The position numbers and the translations under genes were made by a program. The notes under the pieces are model-generated. The model saw only the letters and a program-made list of their open reading frames with translations, ran no database searches and had not been told where the DNA came from. Source: Escherichia phage EK5. From it: a DNA stretch of 64,000 nucleotides. The stretch lies in the sequence record PQ805429.1; one strand, written 5' to 3'. This document shows positions 1,650-64,000 of the stretch, in pieces; positions within the stretch are counted from its first letter, which is position 1; every line of letters begins with the position of its first letter.

Positions 1650-2205
1650 GAATGTCTTTGATTTACCTGAGATTGGTCGTGACAGCTATAGTATGTTAGA
1701 CCGGTCCGACCTATCAATCTCTCGCCTTGAAACGATGCAAGGTATGATTAGTGGAAACAGCCTAGAACACATCCTGAGCTGCTTACAAGCTAACATGGAA
1801 CTCTTGCATATCAAAGCTAAAAACTACCACTGGAACGTCTCTGGTGCAGGATTTCAGGGTGTTCATGGTATGTTTGATGAGCTGGAAGATTACGCACGAC
1901 AGGTAGGAGATCGTATTGCTGAACGTATGCGTTACCACTGTGTTAAAGTGGATGCTACAGCAGCTAACTACCTCTCTCATTCTTGGTTCTCAGAGGGTAA
2001 TGCTGATCTAGACATGGACGGTATGCTCTCTGATATGTGCATGACCTTGATGTGTATTATTGAGAAGATGGATGAGTTTGATGGTGATTTAGCCACCTAC
2101 CCTGTCGATCAGAGTATGCTTCAAGAAATTAATGAAGGTCTTGGCAAGTATTGCTACTTCGTCAAGAGCAACATGTCCCATTCAAGTGGTGACGTGTCTT
2201 ACTAA
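1642..2205 (+). CDS. Dps-like ferritin-fold protein
   Basis: Start moved to ATG 1642 (overlaps upstream stop); KNYHWNVSGAGFQGVHGMFDELEDY...DRIAERM matches the Dps ferroxidase-site signature HWNV.G..F..LH..FeE...D..AER. Confidence 0.6.
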   Translation: MHKNVFDLPEIGRDSYSMLDRSDLSISRLETMQGMISGNSLEHILSCLQANMELLHIKAKNYHWNVSGAGFQGVHGMFDELEDYARQVGDRIAERMRYHCVKVDATAANYLSHSWFSEGNADLDMDGMLSDMCMTLMCIIEKMDEFDGDLATYPVDQSMLQEINEGLGKYCYFVKSNMSHSSGDVSY

Positions 2206-2266
2206 AAACCTCCGCCCTGTCTCCTAACCCGAGGTGGGGCGAACTTATTTATAAGGATATAGATAT

Positions 2267-2446
2267 ATGTTATCAGCAATCGTATGGGGTATTTGGGCTA
2301 TCTTTATTGGTGGTGGTATTTATTGGGCTTCTGGTAAGCTTATTGAAGAAACTCCTGATAAGAAAGGTGAGATTCAAACAGCATCAACCATCATGGTTAT
2401 CGTAGCTGTTGTTATCCCATTCCTGCTTCACCTCCTGACTGCATAA
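2267..2446 (+). CDS. small membrane protein (two predicted TM helices)
   Basis: 59 aa ORF below track cutoff; hydrophobic segments AIVWGIWAIFIGGGIYW and IMVIVAVVIPFLLHLL. Confidence 0.4.
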   Translation: MLSAIVWGIWAIFIGGGIYWASGKLIEETPDKKGEIQTASTIMVIVAVVIPFLLHLLTA

Positions 2447-2454
2447 GGATTTAC

Positions 2455-2730
2455 ATGTCTAAAGTAATTAAGTTTTATAGTGATCAGTGTGCTCCATGTA
2501 AAGCAATGGCTCCTACCTTTGAGAAGGTTGTTAAGGAGTTTGATGTAGAAGTGGAAGAGATTAACATCCTTGAAGGTGATGGTCGTGAACAAGCTGTTAA
2601 GTATGGTATACGAAGCATCCCTGCTTTTGTTGTGCCTGACCGTAACAGTGGTGCACACTACAGCCTCTCCGGTATGCAGACTGAAGCAAACCTGAAAGCA
2701 TTTTTGGACACAGCCCTGAGAAATAAGTAA
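2455..2730 (+). CDS. thioredoxin-fold protein (CxxC active site)
   Basis: 91 aa; FYSDQCAPCKAMAP active-site context typical of thioredoxin/glutaredoxin. Confidence 0.7.
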   Translation: MSKVIKFYSDQCAPCKAMAPTFEKVVKEFDVEVEEINILEGDGREQAVKYGIRSIPAFVVPDRNSGAHYSLSGMQTEANLKAFLDTALRNK

Positions 2731-2745
2731 TAAGGATATTCACGG

Positions 2746-3402
2746 ATGAATGAACAACTACAAGCAACATTAATCGAAGCTATGGGAAGTGATCGTAGCG
2801 TAGTAAACGCAGCTCGAGTTTCCTTTGGCGTAACCCGTGAAGGTGATTTAAATGAACGTGATGAACGTCTCATCAACTTCCTCGCAAGAGAGAAGCATGT
2901 TACCCCATTCCGACACCCGCAAGTCAGTTTCCGATGCAAAGCACCTATCGCAATTGCGAGACAGTTGGGCAAGCATCAGGTTGGATTCTCGTGGAACGAA
3001 ATGTCCCGGCGGTATAAAGATGGAGCAGTTGAAGTCTTCATCCCTAAAGAGATTTTTGCGAGACCTTCGGACCTCCATGCAGGTTCAGGGGTTCAACTCA
3101 TCGATGGAGAACGAGCTGAAGCATTAATGTTGATTAACGATGCATATGAAGCTTCTCTAGCAGCATATGACAAGTTGATTGAATTTATTGCACCAGAGCA
3201 AGCTCGATTTGTTCTTCCTCAGGGGATGATCACTGAGTGGGTGTGGACTGGTTCTTTGTATGGCTGGTTTGAGTTGTGCCGTCAGCGACTCTCCTCTCAC
3301 GCTCAATATGAAGTTCGAGTGTTTGCTAAATCTCTAGATGAAGAGATGGCTAAACTCTACCCAATCTCGTGGGCAGCTCTGAAGAAAACTTTGGAGAGTT
3401 AA
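2746..3402 (+). CDS. thyX: flavin-dependent thymidylate synthase ThyX-like
   Basis: 218 aa; RHPQVSF...KHQVGFSWNEMSRRY resembles the ThyX RHR...S.RY signature. Confidence 0.6.
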   Translation: MNEQLQATLIEAMGSDRSVVNAARVSFGVTREGDLNERDERLINFLAREKHVTPFRHPQVSFRCKAPIAIARQLGKHQVGFSWNEMSRRYKDGAVEVFIPKEIFARPSDLHAGSGVQLIDGERAEALMLINDAYEASLAAYDKLIEFIAPEQARFVLPQGMITEWVWTGSLYGWFELCRQRLSSHAQYEVRVFAKSLDEEMAKLYPISWAALKKTLES

Positions 3403-3403
3403 A

Positions 3404-3652
3404 ATGGCTAGTAAAAGTATTTGGATTCTGAGTCGTGTTGAAGAGACAGACAGAGGGGAGTACACAGAAGTGCTTTGCTCTTTCATTACATACCCCACAA
3501 AACAACAGCTTGAAGATGCTGGAGTAGAAATAAATCTTTCTCAATCTCTTTTTGATAAAAAGGTTTCCAAGTCAACAGCCCCATTCTTTGGTTATTACTA
3601 CACACTTGATAGTTTGGAGCTACTGATGAATGATTCTTGTTTGGAGAATTAA
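3404..3652 (+). CDS. hypothetical protein
   Basis: 82 aa ORF, RBS GGAGAG upstream. Confidence 0.45.
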   Translation: MASKSIWILSRVEETDRGEYTEVLCSFITYPTKQQLEDAGVEINLSQSLFDKKVSKSTAPFFGYYYTLDSLELLMNDSCLEN

Positions 3653-3786
3653 TGTTGGAAGAAGATGACGATGTGTTCTGCACCAAGTGTGGGATGACAG
3701 TTGATGATGCATATGACCCAAGTGTAGAAATTTGTCCATGTTGCGGAGTATGTGAATATTGCTGTTCCCACAACTCAGAGGATTAG
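3652..3786 (+). CDS. small Cys-rich protein (putative zinc ribbon)
   Basis: 44 aa, CTKCG...CPCCGVCEYCC; start overlaps previous stop (TAATG). Confidence 0.35.
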   Translation: MLEEDDDVFCTKCGMTVDDAYDPSVEICPCCGVCEYCCSHNSED

Positions 3787-3798
3787 CAGGAATTCCTT

Positions 3799-4032
3799 AT
3801 GAAGATAAAACATATTACAGATATTCAGGAGGCATTTAGAATGCTTCCTCGAAGAGAGAAAGATAAGATTAAGAAGCTTATTCAAGTCTATGGTCATACA
3901 TCTGAAGGTGATGTAGATTATATGCCTGCCACTTTTAGAGAATGCGGAATTGCTCGTAATTTCACATTTGATCGTAAAGTGTTTCAGCAATTCGTTGACC
4001 ACTGGAGAAAAGATGGAAAAGAAAGTCTGTAG
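3799..4032 (+). CDS. hypothetical protein
   Basis: 77 aa ORF. Confidence 0.4.
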   Translation: MKIKHITDIQEAFRMLPRREKDKIKKLIQVYGHTSEGDVDYMPATFRECGIARNFTFDRKVFQQFVDHWRKDGKESL

Positions 4033-4198
4033 CTTCTGTAATAAAGAGAAGACTGTCGCCAACTTTAAACCTAATCCTGTAACTGGTCTGACCCATGTCA
4101 TGTGCCACTCTTGCAGGATATATCTTGAAACAAAACACACTATCAATAGATTGCATTATTATCACCCAACAACATTCAAATTTAAGGTTGTGAAATGA
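4013..4198 (+). CDS. small Cys-rich protein (CxxC...CxxC)
   Basis: Start moved to ATG 4013; CSFCNKEK...CHSCRIY. Confidence 0.4.
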   Translation: MEKKVCSFCNKEKTVANFKPNPVTGLTHVMCHSCRIYLETKHTINRLHYYHPTTFKFKVVK

Positions 4199-4524
4199 TT
4201 GACAGTAATACATTTAGGACTTCAAATGGAAGTGAAATAAGTCCCGCTGAAGTAATCAATCGGCATAGAAGGCAATTGATCATCCATTCCTATTTGTATT
4301 ACTGGTTGGATGACCCTATCTGGTCTGATGATAAATGGCAACAAGTTGCTAATGATCTAGTGGAGCTGCAAGCTCTGTATCCAGAGCCTACCGGAGTCTT
4401 TGACAATGAGTTCAAAGATTGGGATGGTTCTACAGGAATGCATCTCCCACACAATGAGGCTGTTGCTTGTATGGCGACAGCTGTTTACAGGATTCATAAA
4501 GATATGAACCATGAAGTGCTCTAA
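4195..4524 (+). CDS. hypothetical protein with NAD-ligase domain-Ia-like motif
   Basis: 109 aa; HSYLYYWLDDPIWSDDKWQQVANDLVELQALYPEP resembles the LigA N-terminal Ia pattern [29 protein letters not shown]..HPE. Confidence 0.4.
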   Translation: MIDSNTFRTSNGSEISPAEVINRHRRQLIIHSYLYYWLDDPIWSDDKWQQVANDLVELQALYPEPTGVFDNEFKDWDGSTGMHLPHNEAVACMATAVYRIHKDMNHEVL

Positions 4525-4696
4525 ATGTGAAGGAACAAACCTTCATTTAAGTAACAAGATTATCAGAGAGCTTGCCAAAGGCTCTCCAACCAAAGGGAAG
4601 AACAAACGATTTACTAACGTCAGGGTTTATACAGCAATCTGTAAAGACTGTTTAACTACTGAGTGTCATTACGAAGAAATTGGAGAGCGTAAATGA
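4511..4696 (+). CDS. small Cys-rich protein
   Basis: 61 aa; CSKCEG...CKDCLTTEC. Confidence 0.4.
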   Translation: MKCSKCEGTNLHLSNKIIRELAKGSPTKGKNKRFTNVRVYTAICKDCLTTECHYEEIGERK

Positions 4697-5436
4697 GTCG
4701 TCGTCAATCACGGAAAGAATCACGGAAAGACCTTCGTCGGGAAGCACTTGTTACTCGTAAGGGTAAGCGAGAGTATGAAGAGGTGGTTTTAGCAAAGCCT
4801 GTAGTCCCTCAGAACCAGTTTCAGTCTGAGCTACTCAATGCTATTAAGACTAAACAAGTTGTGTTCACAGACGCTCCTGCGGGCTGTGGTAAGACCTTTG
4901 TAATCACTTCCACGGTTATCGATGCACTGAAAAGTGGTAAGATTCAGAAGATCATTCTGAGTCGACCTTCAGTTGGCATGGGCAACTCTCTTGGGTTACT
5001 TCCTGGAGGAATGCGTGAGAAGTTTGAACCTTACCTGATGCCCATCATTGATGTTATTACTCAGCGATATGGTAAGGGGTTCTATGAATGCCAGCTCGGT
5101 AACAGTAACATTGAGTTCGTACCTCTGGAATATCTCCGTGGTCGTTCTTTCAATGATGCTATTGTTATTGTTGATGAATTCCAGAACACCACTAAAGATG
5201 AAGCCTTCTCGATCATGACTCGATTGGGAGAAACCTCTCAGCTGTTCTGCATGGGTGATACTAACCAGCATGATATGCGTGGTCGTGAGAGTGGTCTTAC
5301 TTGGGCTACTAACTTTATTGATGAACATGATCTGTATGAGTTCGCTGAGATTGTAGACGGCGAATCGGATGACATTGTTCGTTCTGGTTTCTGTAAAGCT
5401 ATTGTTAAAGCTATGGAAAAGGAACAAGATAAATGA
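4693..5436 (+). CDS. phoH: PhoH-like ATPase
   Basis: Walker A APAGCGKTF, Walker B IVIVDEFQNTT, PhoH block LEYLRGRSFNDA...MGDTNQHD. Confidence 0.85.
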   Translation: MSRRQSRKESRKDLRREALVTRKGKREYEEVVLAKPVVPQNQFQSELLNAIKTKQVVFTDAPAGCGKTFVITSTVIDALKSGKIQKIILSRPSVGMGNSLGLLPGGMREKFEPYLMPIIDVITQRYGKGFYECQLGNSNIEFVPLEYLRGRSFNDAIVIVDEFQNTTKDEAFSIMTRLGETSQLFCMGDTNQHDMRGRESGLTWATNFIDEHDLYEFAEIVDGESDDIVRSGFCKAIVKAMEKEQDK

Positions 5437-5618
5437 AAGTCGCTTTAGTTATTCGAGATTGTGGTGATGGTTCATCAACCATCGACTTCTACAAAAATAT
5501 CGAACGAGCGTGTTTTGAGTGTGAAGAGTTCAATGAAGACACCTGCATGAATGATGGAGAACCTACTATCATTGACGTTCCTGATGAATTTGTACCACCG
5601 GGAGGGTGGAGTGAGTAA
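5433..5618 (+). CDS. hypothetical protein
   Basis: 61 aa ORF, ATGA overlap with phoH stop. Confidence 0.4.
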   Translation: MKVALVIRDCGDGSSTIDFYKNIERACFECEEFNEDTCMNDGEPTIIDVPDEFVPPGGWSE

Positions 5619-5799
5619 TACTCAAGAGTCAGTAATAGAAGAGATTAAAGCTCAGATAGTTGATAAACTCTCTATCAGAGTTGACTCTAAAGACACCAAA
5701 TGCTCTGGTATACTGAAAATAGAACTCCTCTACAACGGAGAGACTATTTCTTTTGACGAGGTATATGCCTCTGATATTAAATACTTAGCAGAGTTTTAA
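5611..5799 (+). CDS. hypothetical protein (start uncertain, GTG 5611 or ATG 5551)
   Basis: ORF 5551-5799 overlaps upstream gene; in-frame GTG at 5611 follows GGAGGG. Confidence 0.3.
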   Translation: MSNTQESVIEEIKAQIVDKLSIRVDSKDTKCSGILKIELLYNGETISFDEVYASDIKYLAEF

Positions 5800-49732: not shown

Positions 49733-49760
49733 TTGACAGCCTTTTCCTTTATTATATAGT
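49733..49760 (+). promoter_or_regulatory. sigma70-like promoter
   Basis: TTGACA-16 nt-TATAGT, about 45 nt upstream of ATG 49805. Confidence 0.5.
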
Positions 49761-51681: not shown

Positions 51682-51757
51682 GCTTAATCTTTCTCCTGTA
51701 TTGTGCCGTAGTCATGCCTATGGTCATAATTTATCTGATTCTCTAATCCTTCCTGTA

Positions 51758-51784
51758 AGCCTCCTAGTGAGGCTTTTCTCTTTT
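51758..51784 (+). terminator. rho-independent terminator
   Basis: AGCCTC-CTAGT-GAGGCT followed by TTTCTCTTTT. Confidence 0.65.
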
Positions 51785-52589
51785 ATGAGGTGATTGTATG
51801 CCTTACTCCCTTTTAGCTCGTTGTGATGCGTTTTAGGCCGCTAAATATCGCTTTACAAGCCGTTTTCTATGATGTATCGCGTGCGCCTGCTCTTTTACCT
51901 TCCTATAGTGAAAAAGTTTAAAATAATTTGCTTTACCCTATTGCAACCTCATCTGATTAGCGTATACTTCATTTCATCGGGTACGATGTAAAACATACAA
52001 GGCAAGAAATTGCCCCGCTCTTTAAAAATATGATTTGTCTTACGGGTGGCGGCGACGTCATTACTATAAGGCGCTCAGTTAATCGGTAGAATTGATTCCT
52101 GATTCATACGTGACGCAGGCGGACAATAAGCAATATCAATAAGCCTTATTTGTTCGATACTTTCAAAAGATTAATGCTTGAAAGCGCACTAGATTCCCTG
52201 AAAGACAAATCAGACTTATCATCTTGCCCTTTCGCATAGATTCACGCGAGATAAGGGAAAGGAATTAAAAGAAGATGATAAAAAGAGTTGCAAACGTGGT
52301 TAAAGTAGTCCATACTAACCACAAGTTAGCAAAACATCGCTAACTAGTTCCCAAATCAACGTATCGCGGGAAAGGTGGCACATAGTGCAGCGATTAGTTC
52401 AGGTGTAGGCGGCCTGTTAATGAATCAGTAAGCCTTCAATGTGACAGTGATTAGCAGACACTTTAAAAGGCTAAACGCTCTTTAACAATATGAGTCATAA
52501 GTTAAGCCTCACCGCTTAATCTTCAATCAAATAAAGCTGATTGATATATCCTCCCAATAGCGGGAACGACGAAAAAGATTAAAAAGCGG

Positions 52590-52618
52590 TTGACAGCGAA
52601 AACAACATGATTCATAAT
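52590..52618 (+). promoter_or_regulatory. near-consensus sigma70 promoter inside ORF-free region
   Basis: TTGACA-17 nt-CATAAT. Confidence 0.5.
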
Positions 52619-53541
52619 GAGCACTCACTAAGCAAATCATCGCTTCAGTGAAAAGCGTAACAACGGCTAACAGTTGCATAGTGTGAGAAAGCACACTGAT
52701 AGATTTACCGCTCTTTAATAATTTAAACATTCTCCTATATCGGTTGAATATGCTTGATGATAATAACCATCGGAAAGCATACCAGATAAAACGGCGTAAA
52801 ACTCCCTAAATTATCAGGGTAAACAGTTTTACATTCCCTTACTGGAAACGTCACCATTGATAAACGGATTCATTGAGTACACGCAAAGACTTGAGCTAAT
52901 CGCCCACGGTTAAGGGTAGCGGCGGTCATTGCTAACACGGTGCTACAGTGAAAGAAGTTAATCAGGGTAGGCAATCCCGACGAATTAACGCTCAATTGAG
53001 AGCGGCGGGGAGTGGTTAAAAAGTGGCAAATTGCTATTTAACAATAAGGTTTAGTGTGAACGTTTACAATGTGAACGGCTTGAGATTCATCTTATGATGA
53101 AAGTACATAGTCGGTTTATGTAGTAAACTTGCCGAAAGATATAAAACGTCGGAACATTAGACGGTCAATGACTCTTTCGCAATAGTATCCCGTAGTGGGC
53201 GATGACTAGCGATTGAGAGTTGATATAAAAGGATAGGCGAGAGCGAAAGCAAAGTAAACGATATTGCCGACGGTTACAATAACGTAACTAATTAGAGTCG
53301 GACGCACTGCCTTATTGTGATGATTGATCATCGCTATCAGGTCGGCTTCGTTTATAGCGACTAATTAAAGATACCAGATGAAACATCACGGATAAGGGGG
53401 CGGCAAGGTTAACTCCTGATAAGACCGCCCCGCTTACCTATAACTACTTAACAACGAGTGGTTATAGTTAAGTTAATAGTGACTTAAACAAGCTCATAGA
53501 GAGCGGGGCAATAGCGCCCTTACAATTGAAAGGTGAATATT

Positions 53542-54441: not shown

Positions 54442-54464
54442 GTAAGACAATTTAAATAAACATA

Positions 54465-54499
54465 AGGCGCTATCTTAACGGGTAGCGCCTTTTCTTTTA
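54465..54499 (+). terminator. rho-independent terminator
   Basis: AGGCGCTA-loop-TAGCGCCT followed by TTTCTTTTAT. Confidence 0.65.
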
Positions 54500-55875: not shown

Positions 55876-55901
55876 TGCCCCGGCTACGGCTGGGGCTTTT
55901 T
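55876..55901 (+). terminator. rho-independent terminator (second of tandem pair)
   Basis: GCCCCGGC-TACG-GCTGGGGC followed by TTTTTT. Confidence 0.65.
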
Positions 55902-57308: not shown

Positions 57309-57605
57309 ATGACTTTAGAAGTATATAAATTCCTTTTTGTAAGCTGTTTAACTATCAGCGTTCTAGGATTTATTGTTCTCAGAAACAAAGCAGCAAGCTG
57401 GGAAAGAATGTATAAATCCCTAGTTCGAGTGGATGAGATGTATAACGAGAAGGTTAAAGTAACACTCAACGATCTTATTATGCAAGTTGAAGACAGAAAC
57501 AAACGTCTTCAGAACCTCAATCATGAAGTGTTGCGACTTGCTCGTGCTAATGAAGACTTACGAGTGGCTATTGCTAAGCAGCAGGAGATTAACAGTGAAA
57601 GTTAA
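57309..57605 (+). CDS. membrane-anchored coiled-coil protein (possible holin or spanin-like lysis accessory)
   Basis: 98 aa; TM helix FLFVSCLTISVLGFIVL then charged helical region; next to hydrolase gene. Confidence 0.35.
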   Translation: MTLEVYKFLFVSCLTISVLGFIVLRNKAASWERMYKSLVRVDEMYNEKVKVTLNDLIMQVEDRNKRLQNLNHEVLRLARANEDLRVAIAKQQEINSES

Positions 57606-58297: not shown

Positions 58298-58305
58298 CAT
58301 CGACT

Positions 58306-58408
58306 TATAGCCCTTGTGTTTATCAGAGGGCTATGTGAGGGTGTTCCTCATTAACTTATTAATTCAGGCATATGCCACACCGCTAGGGAGAGCTTGCTCG
58401 AACATCCG
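58306..58408 (+). repeat. conserved intergenic element, copy A
   Basis: Hairpin TATAGCCCT...AGGGCTATGTGAG plus GCTAGGGAGAG...CTCGAACATCCG; second copy at 63584-63693. Confidence 0.5.
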
Positions 58409-58785
58409 GTGTTAGACTAAAACCTGTCAATTTTCGAAAGACTTTCTGATATGTAGGGGTACATATTGGTTTGGGATTCAGGAGACTTCCTAGGGGTAGG
58501 GAGTCTTCACCAGTTGGAATAAGAGATAGCTCTAGAACCTGAACTCTTAGGCAGAGAGGGTCGGCAATGAGTACGCGGTCAGAATTAGTCTACTGACTAG
58601 AGCTATCCCTTATATTAACTGGCAATAATGCCTCCACTAACAAAGAGAGATAGGTATGAAAGTATCAACCAAACGTATGAACCGCCCTGAACGTATGGAT
58701 GTAGTAGCTAATGGTGCTCTGAAACTGGAAGGCTTTTGGATTCATGCAATGTCAGCCATCCGTAACAAACAAGGCAATTGGACCT

Positions 58786-58995
58786 ATGCCGGTTAAGACA
58801 ACCCATGTGATAGGTATGCGAGAGATCATTCGCATTGCCTTGATGGAACACACAGAACGCAACATTCAACTAACGCAAATCTCTAAGTGTCTTAATTGCT
58901 CAAGAGATGTGGCTAAGGAGTTGATGTTTGCATTCCTGTATAATGCAGAAGACGAAATGCTACAGAATCATCTGATTCGTTGTGTTAGTCAATAA
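58786..58995 (+). CDS. hypothetical protein (possible HTH)
   Basis: Start moved to ATG 58786; terminator follows. Confidence 0.4.
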   Translation: MPVKTTHVIGMREIIRIALMEHTERNIQLTQISKCLNCSRDVAKELMFAFLYNAEDEMLQNHLIRCVSQ

Positions 58996-58999
58996 AGAG

Positions 59000-59029
59000 A
59001 GGCTGCCTTCGGGCGGCCTTTGTTGTTTT
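59000..59029 (+). terminator. rho-independent terminator
   Basis: AGGCTGCC-TTCG-GGCGGCCT followed by TTGTTGTTTT. Confidence 0.7.
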
Positions 59030-60068: not shown

Positions 60069-60144
60069 GCACCCTTAGCTCAATGGACAGAGCAGCGACC
60101 TTCTAAGTCGTTGGTTACAGGTTCGAGTCCTGTAGGGTGCACCA
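60069..60144 (+). tRNA. tRNA-Arg (anticodon UCU)
   Basis: 7-bp acceptor stem GCACCCT/AGGGTGC, D-arm GCTC/GAGC, anticodon loop CTTCTAA, T-arm ACAGG-TTCGAGT-CCTGT, discriminator A and encoded CCA. Confidence 0.9.
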
Positions 60145-61535: not shown

Positions 61536-61825
61536 TATCGTGAAGGATTCTTACGAGAGTCCTTTGAGATAGGACTTCAGATCTCCTATCAAACTAACAT
61601 TCATGTAACTAGCCCATAAGGGCGTTACCCTTTAATAACCCAGCCCACTAAGGGGGCGGGAGTTTAGTGCTGGATTAGCATAACGCTTATTCCTACAAAG
61701 GCAACCGATTGTTAGATCTTACATGCAATATTAACTAATAGGATAAGGGAGGATTCGTCCCCTCCCCCTATTTTATTGAATCTTTATCTAAGCAAGTCTT
61801 ATATAAACGTTTAATTGGAGGATGT

Positions 61826-63569: not shown

Positions 63570-63583
63570 TTGTAGTAACGCCT

Positions 63584-63693
63584 ATAGCCTTCTTCGGAGG
63601 GCTATGTGAGTTATTCTGACTCAACTAACCTAATCTTAATATATTTCCCGTATGGGGCCGATGCTAGGGAGAGGAACATTCCTCGAACATCCG
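63584..63693 (+). repeat. conserved intergenic element, copy B
   Basis: TATAGCC...AGGGCTATGTGAG and GCTAGGGAGAG...CTCGAACATCCG, same order as copy A. Confidence 0.5.
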
Positions 63694-63760
63694 TCGGATA
63701 GATATTTTAAGAGCAGGTTATCCACAGATATTGGGTAATATCTTTTTGTATTTAAAGCTT

Positions 63761-63786
63761 GACTCTTTTCGGAGAGTCCTTTTTTA
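63761..63786 (+). terminator. rho-independent terminator
   Basis: GACTCT-TTTCGG-AGAGTC followed by CTTTTTT. Confidence 0.65.
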
Positions 63787-64000
63787 AATTCAACGAGAGG
63801 AAATATGTCTAAATTAGATTTAAAACTGCTAGCAGCAGCGGTAGTGATTTGTGCACTAGCACTGGTAACGCAGAGAACATCTGGATTTATTCAGTGTTTC
63901 TTTTCTGGGCAATCCACTTATCAGTGGGTTATTGACGAGTGTAAACAACAGGAGTAAGTATGAATACACGTCCCATCAAGGGCAACGTTAATATTGAAAC

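Follow-up and report, generated by a model that had tools for sequence, protein, structure and literature searches.

The 64,000-nt stretch of Escherichia phage EK5 analyzed here (PQ805429.1; hereafter the window) comes from a phiEco32/SU10-like coliphage and carries, in two gaps between early genes, a repeated element whose copies, A and B, are shown by comparison of related genomes to be a conserved structured RNA domain of ~115 to 125 nt with four helices, lying on the gene-sense strand. The region around both copies is 97% identical to Escherichia phage SU10 and 89% identical to phiEco32 (Kuravirus, Gordonclarkvirinae), with the + strand of the window corresponding to the reverse complement of the SU10 and phiEco32 records. 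From ~49.7 kb to the end of the window every gene is on the + strand, and by homology these are the early genes, small open reading frames (ORFs) without assigned function. Early genes are transcribed by host sigma-70 RNA polymerase (RNAP) from promoters at the start of the cluster, and in phiEco32 and SU10 early promoters are confined to the start of the early cluster, coding sequences (CDSs) 69 to 125 (PMC4281155; PMC8948821). A promoter scan of the window gives consensus-like promoters at 49733 and 52590.

Each copy starts 8 to 13 nt past the stop codon of the preceding gene, in a + strand gap that is free of ORFs, in agreement with a preliminary description of this DNA that had placed two copies of a structured element in non-coding gaps. 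The sequence blocks on which that description was based are indeed shared by both gaps, as the window has exactly two occurrences of AGGGCTATGTGAG (within matches at 58326-58339 and 63597-63610) and exactly two of GCTAGGGAGAG...CTCGAACATCC (58382-58407 and 63663-63692), a composite pattern with no match in 100 dinucleotide-preserving shuffles. The blocks follow each other in the same order, and the distance between them, given earlier as 43-53 nt, measures 42 and 52 nt. The locations proposed for the two copies (58306-58408 and 63584-63693) were right and their extent slightly too narrow, with the cores spanning 58302-58416 and 63579-63701. The two gaps align with 73% mean column identity, and a covariance model (CM) built from relatives finds only copies A and B in the window, both scoring ~119 bits, with every other match below 12 bits. 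A chance repeat is ruled out by the shuffles, the exact pattern counts and the CM scores. The parts of the two copies are as follows.

58302-58416, + strand: core element of copy A (fold; CM 119.1 and 112.8 bits; covariation)
58307-58334, + strand: H1 of copy A
58335-58351, + strand: H2 of copy A
58352-58366, + strand: A/U linker of copy A
58367-58376, + strand: H3 of copy A
58377-58412, + strand: H4 of copy A
58383-58389, + strand: 5' loop of H4, copy A (CUAGGGA)
58390-58399, + strand: inner hairpin of H4, copy A
58400-58406, + strand: 3' loop of H4, copy A (GAACAUC)
63579-63701, + strand: core element of copy B (folds; CM 119.2 and 112.2 bits; covariation)
63583-63606, + strand: H1 of copy B (UUCG loop)
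63607-63623, + strand: H2 of copy B
63626-63645, + strand: linker of copy B
63647-63656, + strand: H3 of copy B
63658-63697, + strand: H4 of copy B
63664-63670 and 63685-63691, + strand: loops of H4, copy B

When folded alone, each copy adopts the same layout of H1, H2, an A/U-rich linker, H3, and H4. H1 is a stem of 9 to 10 bp that H2 directly adjoins, H3 is a stem of 3 to 4 bp with a GUAU or AUAU loop, and H4 consists of a 6-bp outer stem, a 7x7 internal loop and an inner hairpin of 3 to 5 bp. Single-sequence folding z-scores are unremarkable (-1.7 and -1.85), so the case for structure rests on the comparison between genomes. Among 39 distinct sequences, 95.8% of the pair cells hold standard pairs (83.5% in shuffles and 34 to 51% with partners slid) and 16 of the 27 pairs show changes on both sides, values that none of 500 shuffles reached. 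H2 is misaligned between A and B types and was therefore checked one sequence at a time; it forms in every sequence, with at least six different stem sequences (UGAGG/CCUCA, UGAGUUA/UGACUCA, UGAGCUA/UGGCUCA, GAGUUA…/…UAACUC, UGGUAUACA/UGUAUAUCA, and UGGGA/UCCCA). In the diverged metagenomic contig L048, H1 and H2 are wholly different in sequence and the same in shape. Furthermore, U-G and C-G pairs alternate in H1, H2, and H4, and because the U-G pairs would be A-C mismatches on the opposite strand, the folded molecule is the sense-strand RNA. Folding and covariance analysis across relatives, which the preliminary description had suggested, thus returned one layout for both copies with helices kept by compensatory changes. 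Its view that the repeat is a regulatory or RNA-structure element and not chance holds for the structured RNA (covariation in three phage groups), while a regulatory role is still something that we infer.

The internal loop of H4 reads CUAGGG[A/C] on its 5' side and [G/A]AACAUC on its 3' side and is invariant in the 39 distinct sequences, bar one pair beside the inner stem. This pair covaries in a non-Watson-Crick manner (A-G in 23 sequences, C-A in 14, A-A in 2, and C-G in none), with independent switches in the A, B, and Salmonella-phage lineages. Read antiparallel, the loop could form a continuous non-canonical helix (A-G, G-A, G-A, G-C, A-A, U-U, C-C) with a tandem sheared-type G-A start, and such a platform would be typical of a recognition site for a protein or other macromolecule. 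We do not claim that UAGG of the H4 5' loop pairs with CCUA/CUUA/UUCCU of the linker in a pseudoknot, as the register of this complementarity shifts between lineages and CVT22 lacks it.

With respect to distribution, 98 deposited phage genomes contain copy A and 103 contain copy B, the latter including the Salmonella 7-11 group at ~72% identity, and more copies, along with the diverged member L048, came from pattern scans of IMG/VR, metagenomes, and GTDB genomes; a lack of conservation in related genomes, which had been named as a refutation, is thus not what we observe. Two copies per genome are found in Kuravirus, Suseptimavirus, and Nieuwekanaalvirus (Gordonclarkvirinae), and one B-type copy in the 30- to 39-kb regions examined of the Moazamivirus-type phages 7-11, SE131, and pSal-SNUABM-01. 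Citrovirus (Zobellviridae) has one diverged copy each in Klebsiella phage Klyazma (37.8 bits with model R1, then 61.8 with R2), Citrobacter phage CVT22 (30.1, then 36.7 bits, E ~1e-6), and contig L048 (65.6 bits with R1 and 98.6 with R2, which had L048 among its training sequences). The H4 loop is CUAGGAA/…CCAUC in Klyazma and more diverged in CVT22. A CM search of the 14.8-kb early-side region of Erwinia phage Pecta found no copy. The carrier phages have in common a phage sigma factor, a primase-helicase, and a cluster of amidoligase, glutamine amidotransferase (GATase), and ATP-grasp genes 3' of the small early genes.

Contig L048, which is CVT22-like and was binned as a Flavobacterium metagenome-assembled genome, is clearly phage and not Flavobacterium chromosome. 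Its positions 1978-5668 hold at least seven small ORFs with a shared acidic tail, …(D/E)EENE, which suggests a paralogous family of small early proteins. In several records, CDSs for a "hypothetical protein" or "membrane protein" are annotated over copy A or B (Bas88, L018 15839-16107; SU10, CHD5UKE1, and Bas89-94); given the RNA covariation, these small CDSs are probably spurious calls.

The homology between A and B runs ~100 nt past the core, further than the preliminary description saw; the covarying H2, H3, and H4 outer stem, this downstream extension, the copy-B terminator, and the segment antisense to host nrdD with its DnaA box after copy B are all additions to it. In both copies, H4 is followed by WUAGA and by a further hairpin, H5, whose tetraloop is G-rich. 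The features of the two modules that follow are listed here.

58446-58469, + strand: H5 of module A, 10-bp hairpin with a GGGG tetraloop closed by UA/UA (CUGAUAUGUA-GGGG-UACAUAUUGG; minimum free energy [MFE] fold)
58481-58508, + strand: H6 of module A, 12-bp hairpin with a UA-GGGG-UA top like that of H5 and no U-tract
~58519-58614 (approximate), + strand: H7, long hairpin (…AGAUAGCUCUAG / CUAGAGCUAUC…; alignment of 18 gap-A sequences)
63700-63720, + strand: 3' strand of the B-specific long-range helix, pairing with the linker at 63626-63645 and enclosing H3 and H4 in a three-way junction
63705-63746, + strand: anti-nrdD segment, just 3' of copy B (BLAST, 86 to 91% identity over 34 to 42 nt)
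63726-63743, + strand: H5 of module B, AGAUAUU-GGGU-AAUAUCU, then a U/A-rich stretch; in Gordonclarkvirinae B modules
63750-63789, + strand: strong intrinsic terminator, core stem 63761-63778 plus UUUUUU tail, ending at 63787 (terminator scan, fold)

In module A, the H5 stem shows compensatory changes between Kuravirus, phiEco32, and Suseptimavirus in the alignment, and H6 occupies the position that the terminator holds in module B; a GGGG-loop hairpin is also found at the H6 position in Klyazma, where it scores as terminator-like, and in L048. H5 and H6 are 37 nt apart, have identical UA-GGGG-UA tops, and hold the only two exact TAGGGGTA sites of the window. The H7 region carries an insertion of ~58 nt in some Kuravirus genomes that is missing in NJ01-like and Suseptimavirus genomes, and its stem is kept by compensatory changes, with different sequences in the NJ01-like and Suseptimavirus versions. 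An H3-like hairpin lies 3' of H7, followed by the ribosome-binding site (RBS) of a gene for a 46-aa protein at 58656; gap A as a whole comprises 358 nt.

The 214-nt module B folds with an MFE z of -4.07, and none of 200 shuffles folds as well. Its long-range helix pairs UAACCU…UCUUAA…AUAU with AUAU…UUAAGA…AGGUUA and is kept in the RNAalifold consensus of eight B modules, the Salmonella phages differing at both positions of four pairs; it was not found in A-type modules. The stem of the copy-B terminator is extended by pairing of an A-tract with the U-tract. The terminator lies ~60 nt 3' of copy B; it is conserved in Salmonella phage 7-11, whose record also annotates it as such. Klyazma has a near-consensus early promoter at 1196, followed by the element at 2647-2785 and by the terminator-like hairpin at 2859-2876, which is the sole + strand site of this kind in 5 kb of early region, 74 nt past the element and 1.6 kb past the promoter. 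The distance from the element to the next terminator or terminator-like hairpin is 60 to 75 nt in most lineages. No U-tract follows H1-H4 in either copy, and so the element itself is not an intrinsic terminator.

Just 3' of copy B, the anti-nrdD segment matches a single locus in 5,423 of 5,426 complete Escherichia coli genomes. This locus is matched on the strand opposite nrdD, starting 14 nt ahead of the nrdD start codon, so that the phage sense RNA is complementary to the nrdD leader from 14 nt to ~47 to 55 nt upstream of the AUG, with a predicted RNA duplex of -57.3 kcal/mol (-26.7 +/- 3.5 for shuffled phage segments). An NrdR-box/promoter oligonucleotide of nrdD has been published (PMC12176259) and maps ~150 nt upstream of the AUG in the E. 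coli sequence; as this is further upstream than the matched locus, the locus probably lies inside the transcribed nrdD leader. No NrdD is encoded in the window, and the counterpart segment of copy A has no match in the 5,426 E. coli genomes. The segment includes, at 63718-63726, one isolated and perfect DnaA box, TTATCCACA, which is invariant beside copy B in all lineages and which neither copy A nor the Citrovirus copies have; in the RNA model, the linker pairs with half of this box. Every B module, also in the Salmonella phages with their different flanks, has GGTTATCCACA without change. The counterpart segments of the Salmonella phages lie at L002 19155-19215 (7-11) and L021 15125-15190 (pSal-SNUABM-01), where flanks CCAATGTAAAC… and …TATTCTCTTTAC can be told apart from TGTGGATAACC. 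On the host side, the core AGAACAGGTTATCCACAGA is conserved in the leaders of Klebsiella and other Enterobacteriaceae, and the coliphage segment also copies E. coli-specific flanks, which those leaders do not have. Enterobacterial nrdD 5' leaders (L054 1187-1400; L055; L058-L060) contain two conserved TGTGGATAA DnaA boxes, ~30 and ~105 nt upstream of the AUG, of which we found no mention in the ribonucleotide reductase literature searched.

Several further features lie in the early region around the element. A stretch of ~1.85 kb (51682-53532) has no ORF of at least 60 aa, contains several hairpins, and includes the near-consensus sigma-70 promoter TTGACA-17-CATAAT at 52590. Strong hairpins resembling intrinsic terminators on the sense strand occur at 54464-54491, 55877-55896, 58998-59021, and 61747-61766 and fall within a region that is treated in the literature as a single long early transcription unit. 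A tRNA-Arg gene (anticodon UCU) is found at 60069-60144, between the two copies. Directly after gap A, 58656-58796 encodes the basic 46-aa protein (MKVSTKRMNRPERMD…), whose homologue in Salmonella phage 7-11 is gp135 (L002 6893-7072), with an arginine-rich N-terminus (TKAFRRNAEKRMNR) that we take to be similar to the arginine-rich motif of lambda N. Neither the 46-aa protein nor the 7-11 homologue has a Pfam match or an annotated PHROG function, and the homologous gene is not adjacent to the element in 7-11 or Citrovirus; on these grounds, we do not claim an N-like protein beside copy A. In phage 7-11, gp135 is followed by ~700 nt without an ORF (L002 7073-7783) that include two tRNA-like T-arm/acceptor 3' ends (GGTTCGAATCC… and GGTTCGACTCC…), neither of which ARAGORN calls as a tRNA or transfer-messenger RNA (tmRNA).

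The element is a real RNA family that has not been described before. At the gathering threshold, Rfam 15 finds only the tRNA-Arg in the whole window, and when both gaps are scanned permissively (E up to 10), two chance-level 13-bit matches appear, both outside the element, so that we reject a known RNA family; no description was found in the literature either, including papers on phiEco32-group transcription, genomes, and prophage small RNAs (sRNAs). Literature searches likewise turned up no transcriptome of Kuravirus-infected cells. Self-cleaving ribozymes (hammerhead, twister, twister-sister, pistol, hatchet, and hepatitis delta virus [HDV]-like) were rejected with no Rfam match at E = 10, and neither a CUGAUGA/GAAA core nor a nested double pseudoknot is present in the covariation-supported structure, minimal HDV-like folds not being fully covered by the tools. 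A promoter for the gp36 sigma factor (tAATGTAtA) has no match in or beside either copy, the nearest being at 57406 and 57680; the promoter scan gives a weak sigma-70-like site inside copy B. A tRNA or tmRNA remnant is likewise rejected (ARAGORN finds only the tRNA-Arg at 60069), as is a host repeat of the REP/ERIC type or a host-derived element (copy A is unmatched in the 5,426 E. coli genomes). Protein coding is contradicted by the lack of a + strand ORF of at least 40 aa in gap A and by indels that are not multiples of 3 together with the stem covariation.

The most likely roles of the element belong to known kinds of phage RNA control. The put RNA binds the zinc-binding domain of the RNAP beta' subunit and suppresses pausing and termination without protein factors. 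Like putL and putR of HK022, the element occurs in two similar copies per phage genome, in a region of early genes presumably transcribed by host RNAP, and has adjoining stem-loops and a stem containing non-canonical G-A/C-A pairs; in put, such pairs inside the stem are functionally important (PMC9378689). Copy B has a terminator 60 nt downstream that would have to be passed, and terminator-like hairpins also precede copy A. The two nevertheless differ in that there is no homology of sequence or structure, the element having ~115 to 125 nt and four helices and put ~70 nt and two, and in that the element lies kilobases from promoters (5 to 11 kb) and put tens to hundreds of nucleotides. Moreover, the carriers of the element are lytic podophages with their own sigma factor, and any binding of RNAP by the element is hypothetical. 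A put homologue was rejected after a search with R2 on the full HK022 genome with filters off, in which the best matches scored 13.5 and 10.8 bits and aligned only H1/H2, with H3-H4 deleted; the top match lies in protein-coding-looking sequence. Formal parallels to lambda also exist: copy A is ahead of a gene for a small basic protein (46 aa, 58656), as in nutL-N, and copy B follows a gene and is just ahead of a terminator, as in cro-nutR-tR1. The element is, however, much larger than nut, and direct reading reveals in neither copy a boxA (CGCTCTTA / TGCTCTTTAACA) or a boxB with a GAAAA-type or purine pentaloop; the sole resemblance to boxA is UGCUCGAACA in H4 of copy A, where copy B has UCCUCGAACA instead. 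The 46-aa protein, in turn, has no detectable relation to N and is not found beside the Citrovirus copies.

Enterobacteria also have Hfq-dependent sRNAs derived from 3' untranslated regions, and regulatory RNAs of phages and prophages are known, such as DicF and the anti-sRNAs of Stx prophages. Module B resembles these in its seed-like segment against a host leader near the RBS, its U/A-rich stretch, and its U-tailed terminator that ends a coding transcript; its complementarity of 34 to 42 nt is far above usual seeds and is partly masked by an intramolecular helix, a large conserved scaffold precedes the segment, and copy A, unlike module B, has none of the sRNA features. The RNase III sites of T7 are also repeated irregular hairpins with an internal loop, intercistronic in an early polycistronic transcript of host RNAP; the element differs from them by its one to two copies per genome, multi-helix fold, and unrelated loop sequence, and its cleavage is hypothetical.

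The reading that we tentatively favor, at less than even confidence, is that the element is a nut/put-like cis-acting RNA that would control read-through of the following hairpin in long early operons transcribed by host RNAP. The element would be transcribed within long early polycistronic transcripts made by host sigma-70 RNAP, and the folded RNA, by way of the H4 loop and the H1/H2 pair, would either bind the elongating polymerase directly, as HK022 put does, or recruit a phage or host factor, as lambda nut does. The bound element would then decide whether polymerase reads through the hairpin 60 to 75 nt downstream, that is, the strong terminator after copy B (Kuravirus, Moazamivirus), the weaker terminator-like hairpin in Klyazma, or the hairpin without a U-tract after copy A. 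In this way it would set the immediate-early genes apart from those for lysis, amidoligase, and replication further downstream, with copies A and B playing the part of nutL/nutR or putL/putR. This proposal is based on the covariation-supported sense-strand structure and the invariant H4 loop, on the confinement of phiEco32/SU10 early promoters to the start of the cluster, on the position of the element upstream of a terminator within an operon (copy B, 7-11, Klyazma), on the formal parallels with put, namely two copies in early transcripts, adjoining stem-loops, and non-canonical pairs (PMC9378689), and on the long polycistronic early transcripts of Salmonella phage 7-11, whose antitermination strategy "remains to be defined" (PMC8948821). 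Loop and architecture are kept across groups that share few early proteins and all use enterobacterial RNAP (Gordonclarkvirinae, Moazamivirus, Citrovirus), which points to a host partner. Several observations weigh against the proposal. The strong terminator-like hairpins at 54464 and 55877 lie between the early promoters and copy A, which means that copy A cannot be the first or sole read-through device, and H6 downstream of copy A is without a U-tract. What use a constitutive antiterminator would have immediately ahead of a strongly conserved terminator is not obvious. The elements are kilobases from promoters, unlike put and nut, neither copy has boxA or boxB, and homology to put was not found (best HK022 match 13.5 bits, in coding sequence). 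Nor would read-through control explain why module B has an anti-nrdD segment and a 3' half that resembles an sRNA.

These last features are accounted for by a different reading, possible and yet on balance doubtful, in which the early transcript releases a noncoding RNA whose structured 5' domain (a scaffold, precursor, or stabilizer) is the element and whose variable 3' part is the effector. For copy B, an RNase E cut in the A/U-rich stretch after H4 would free an ~85-nt RNA made of the anti-nrdD seed, H5, a U/A-rich Hfq-type site, and the U-tailed terminator; the seed, masked by the linker in the precursor, would pair near the nrdD RBS and alter synthesis of the anaerobic ribonucleotide reductase. 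The long antisense match to one core E. coli locus (34 to 42 nt at 86 to 91% identity), the strength of the predicted duplex relative to shuffles, the copied E. coli-specific flanks, the strong terminator preceded by a U/A-rich stretch, the conserved helix between seed and linker, and the lack of NrdD in the window all agree with this. Module B has the anatomy of an sRNA, and copy A does not: like the Citrovirus copies, copy A is without a U-tailed terminator, and it has no detectable host match, which means that release of such an RNA explains the 3' half of module B and not the repeated element. Known sRNA chaperones, moreover, do not require a four-helix scaffold, and the most conserved core of the segment is exactly the DnaA box, also conserved in host leaders, which makes a DNA-level reading possible. 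That the element itself acts as DNA, as a replication origin, a DnaA-dependent site, or a hairpin-forming single-strand initiation signal, we regard as highly improbable: the invariant perfect box beside copy B and the A/T-rich stretches with hairpins would fit, but there is only one box, which copy A and the Citrovirus copies do not have and which is half-paired with the linker in the RNA model, and the G-U (G-T) pairs and strand-asymmetric covariation favor RNA.

Two other readings concern the transcript in cis. Intercistronic punctuation for processing or stability, with RNase E cutting in the linker or RNase III in H4 and with H1/H2 shielding the upstream mRNA at its 3' end and H3/H4 the downstream mRNA at its 5' end, as in T7 early mRNA, is an unlikely account. 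It would suit the position directly after stop codons in long polycistronic early transcripts, the stable pair of hairpins in copy A with an A/U-rich single strand after it, the irregular H4 helix of ~16 to 18 bp, and the several copies in one orientation. Plain protective hairpins, however, need no invariant 14-nt internal loop across three phage groups; there are only one to two sites per genome despite dozens of cistrons, and the linker of copy B is base-paired. A leader of the following gene cluster that senses a ligand or protein (a riboswitch-like attenuator or a translational operator) is still harder to credit. The order of aptamer-like domain, terminator hairpin, and genes, the multi-helix fold with an invariant loop, and the amidoligase/GATase cluster downstream in all three phage groups (in Kuravirus and 7-11, glutamine amidotransferase, amidoligase, and ATP-grasp genes) are what such a leader would show. 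Inspection by eye, though, revealed no covariation-supported alternative antiterminator pairing, and an alternative pairing with the 5' arm of the terminator is not claimed, as only short, non-covarying matches were seen; copy A stands ahead of unrelated small genes, the metabolic cluster is 0.4 to 3 kb away, and no known riboswitch class matches. Read-through control and sRNA release could also hold together, a combination we consider rather unlikely, in which H1-H4 would be a new class of polymerase- or factor-binding antitermination RNA in at least three families of sigma-encoding enterobacterial podophages and module B would release an anti-nrdD sRNA with its seed masked by the linker until processing.

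Three points are of experimental interest, namely how strong the covariation is, the H4 loop with its non-canonical covarying pair, and the segment antisense to nrdD. The element constitutes a new RNA family for Rfam-type resources, and GenBank records with hypothetical proteins annotated over it call for revision. Phages of the phiEco32-like and 7-11-like groups are model systems for phage-encoded sigma factors and frequent candidates for therapy. How host RNAP passes through a 30- to 40-kb early/middle region with several intrinsic terminators is explicitly unsettled (PMC8948821), and as a candidate for the missing control point of early transcription the element is concrete and easy to test, being a conserved RNA, supported by covariation, whose recognition loop is invariant and which directly precedes a conserved terminator. 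Should the anti-nrdD segment function at the RNA level, a virulent phage would be hitting a specific host mRNA with an extended antisense seed, which is rare. Were the element an antitermination RNA class, it would answer how early transcription passes terminators in phiEco32 and 7-11, and were module B the source of an sRNA, a lytic phage would reprogram the anaerobic synthesis of deoxynucleoside triphosphates in its host by means of RNA.

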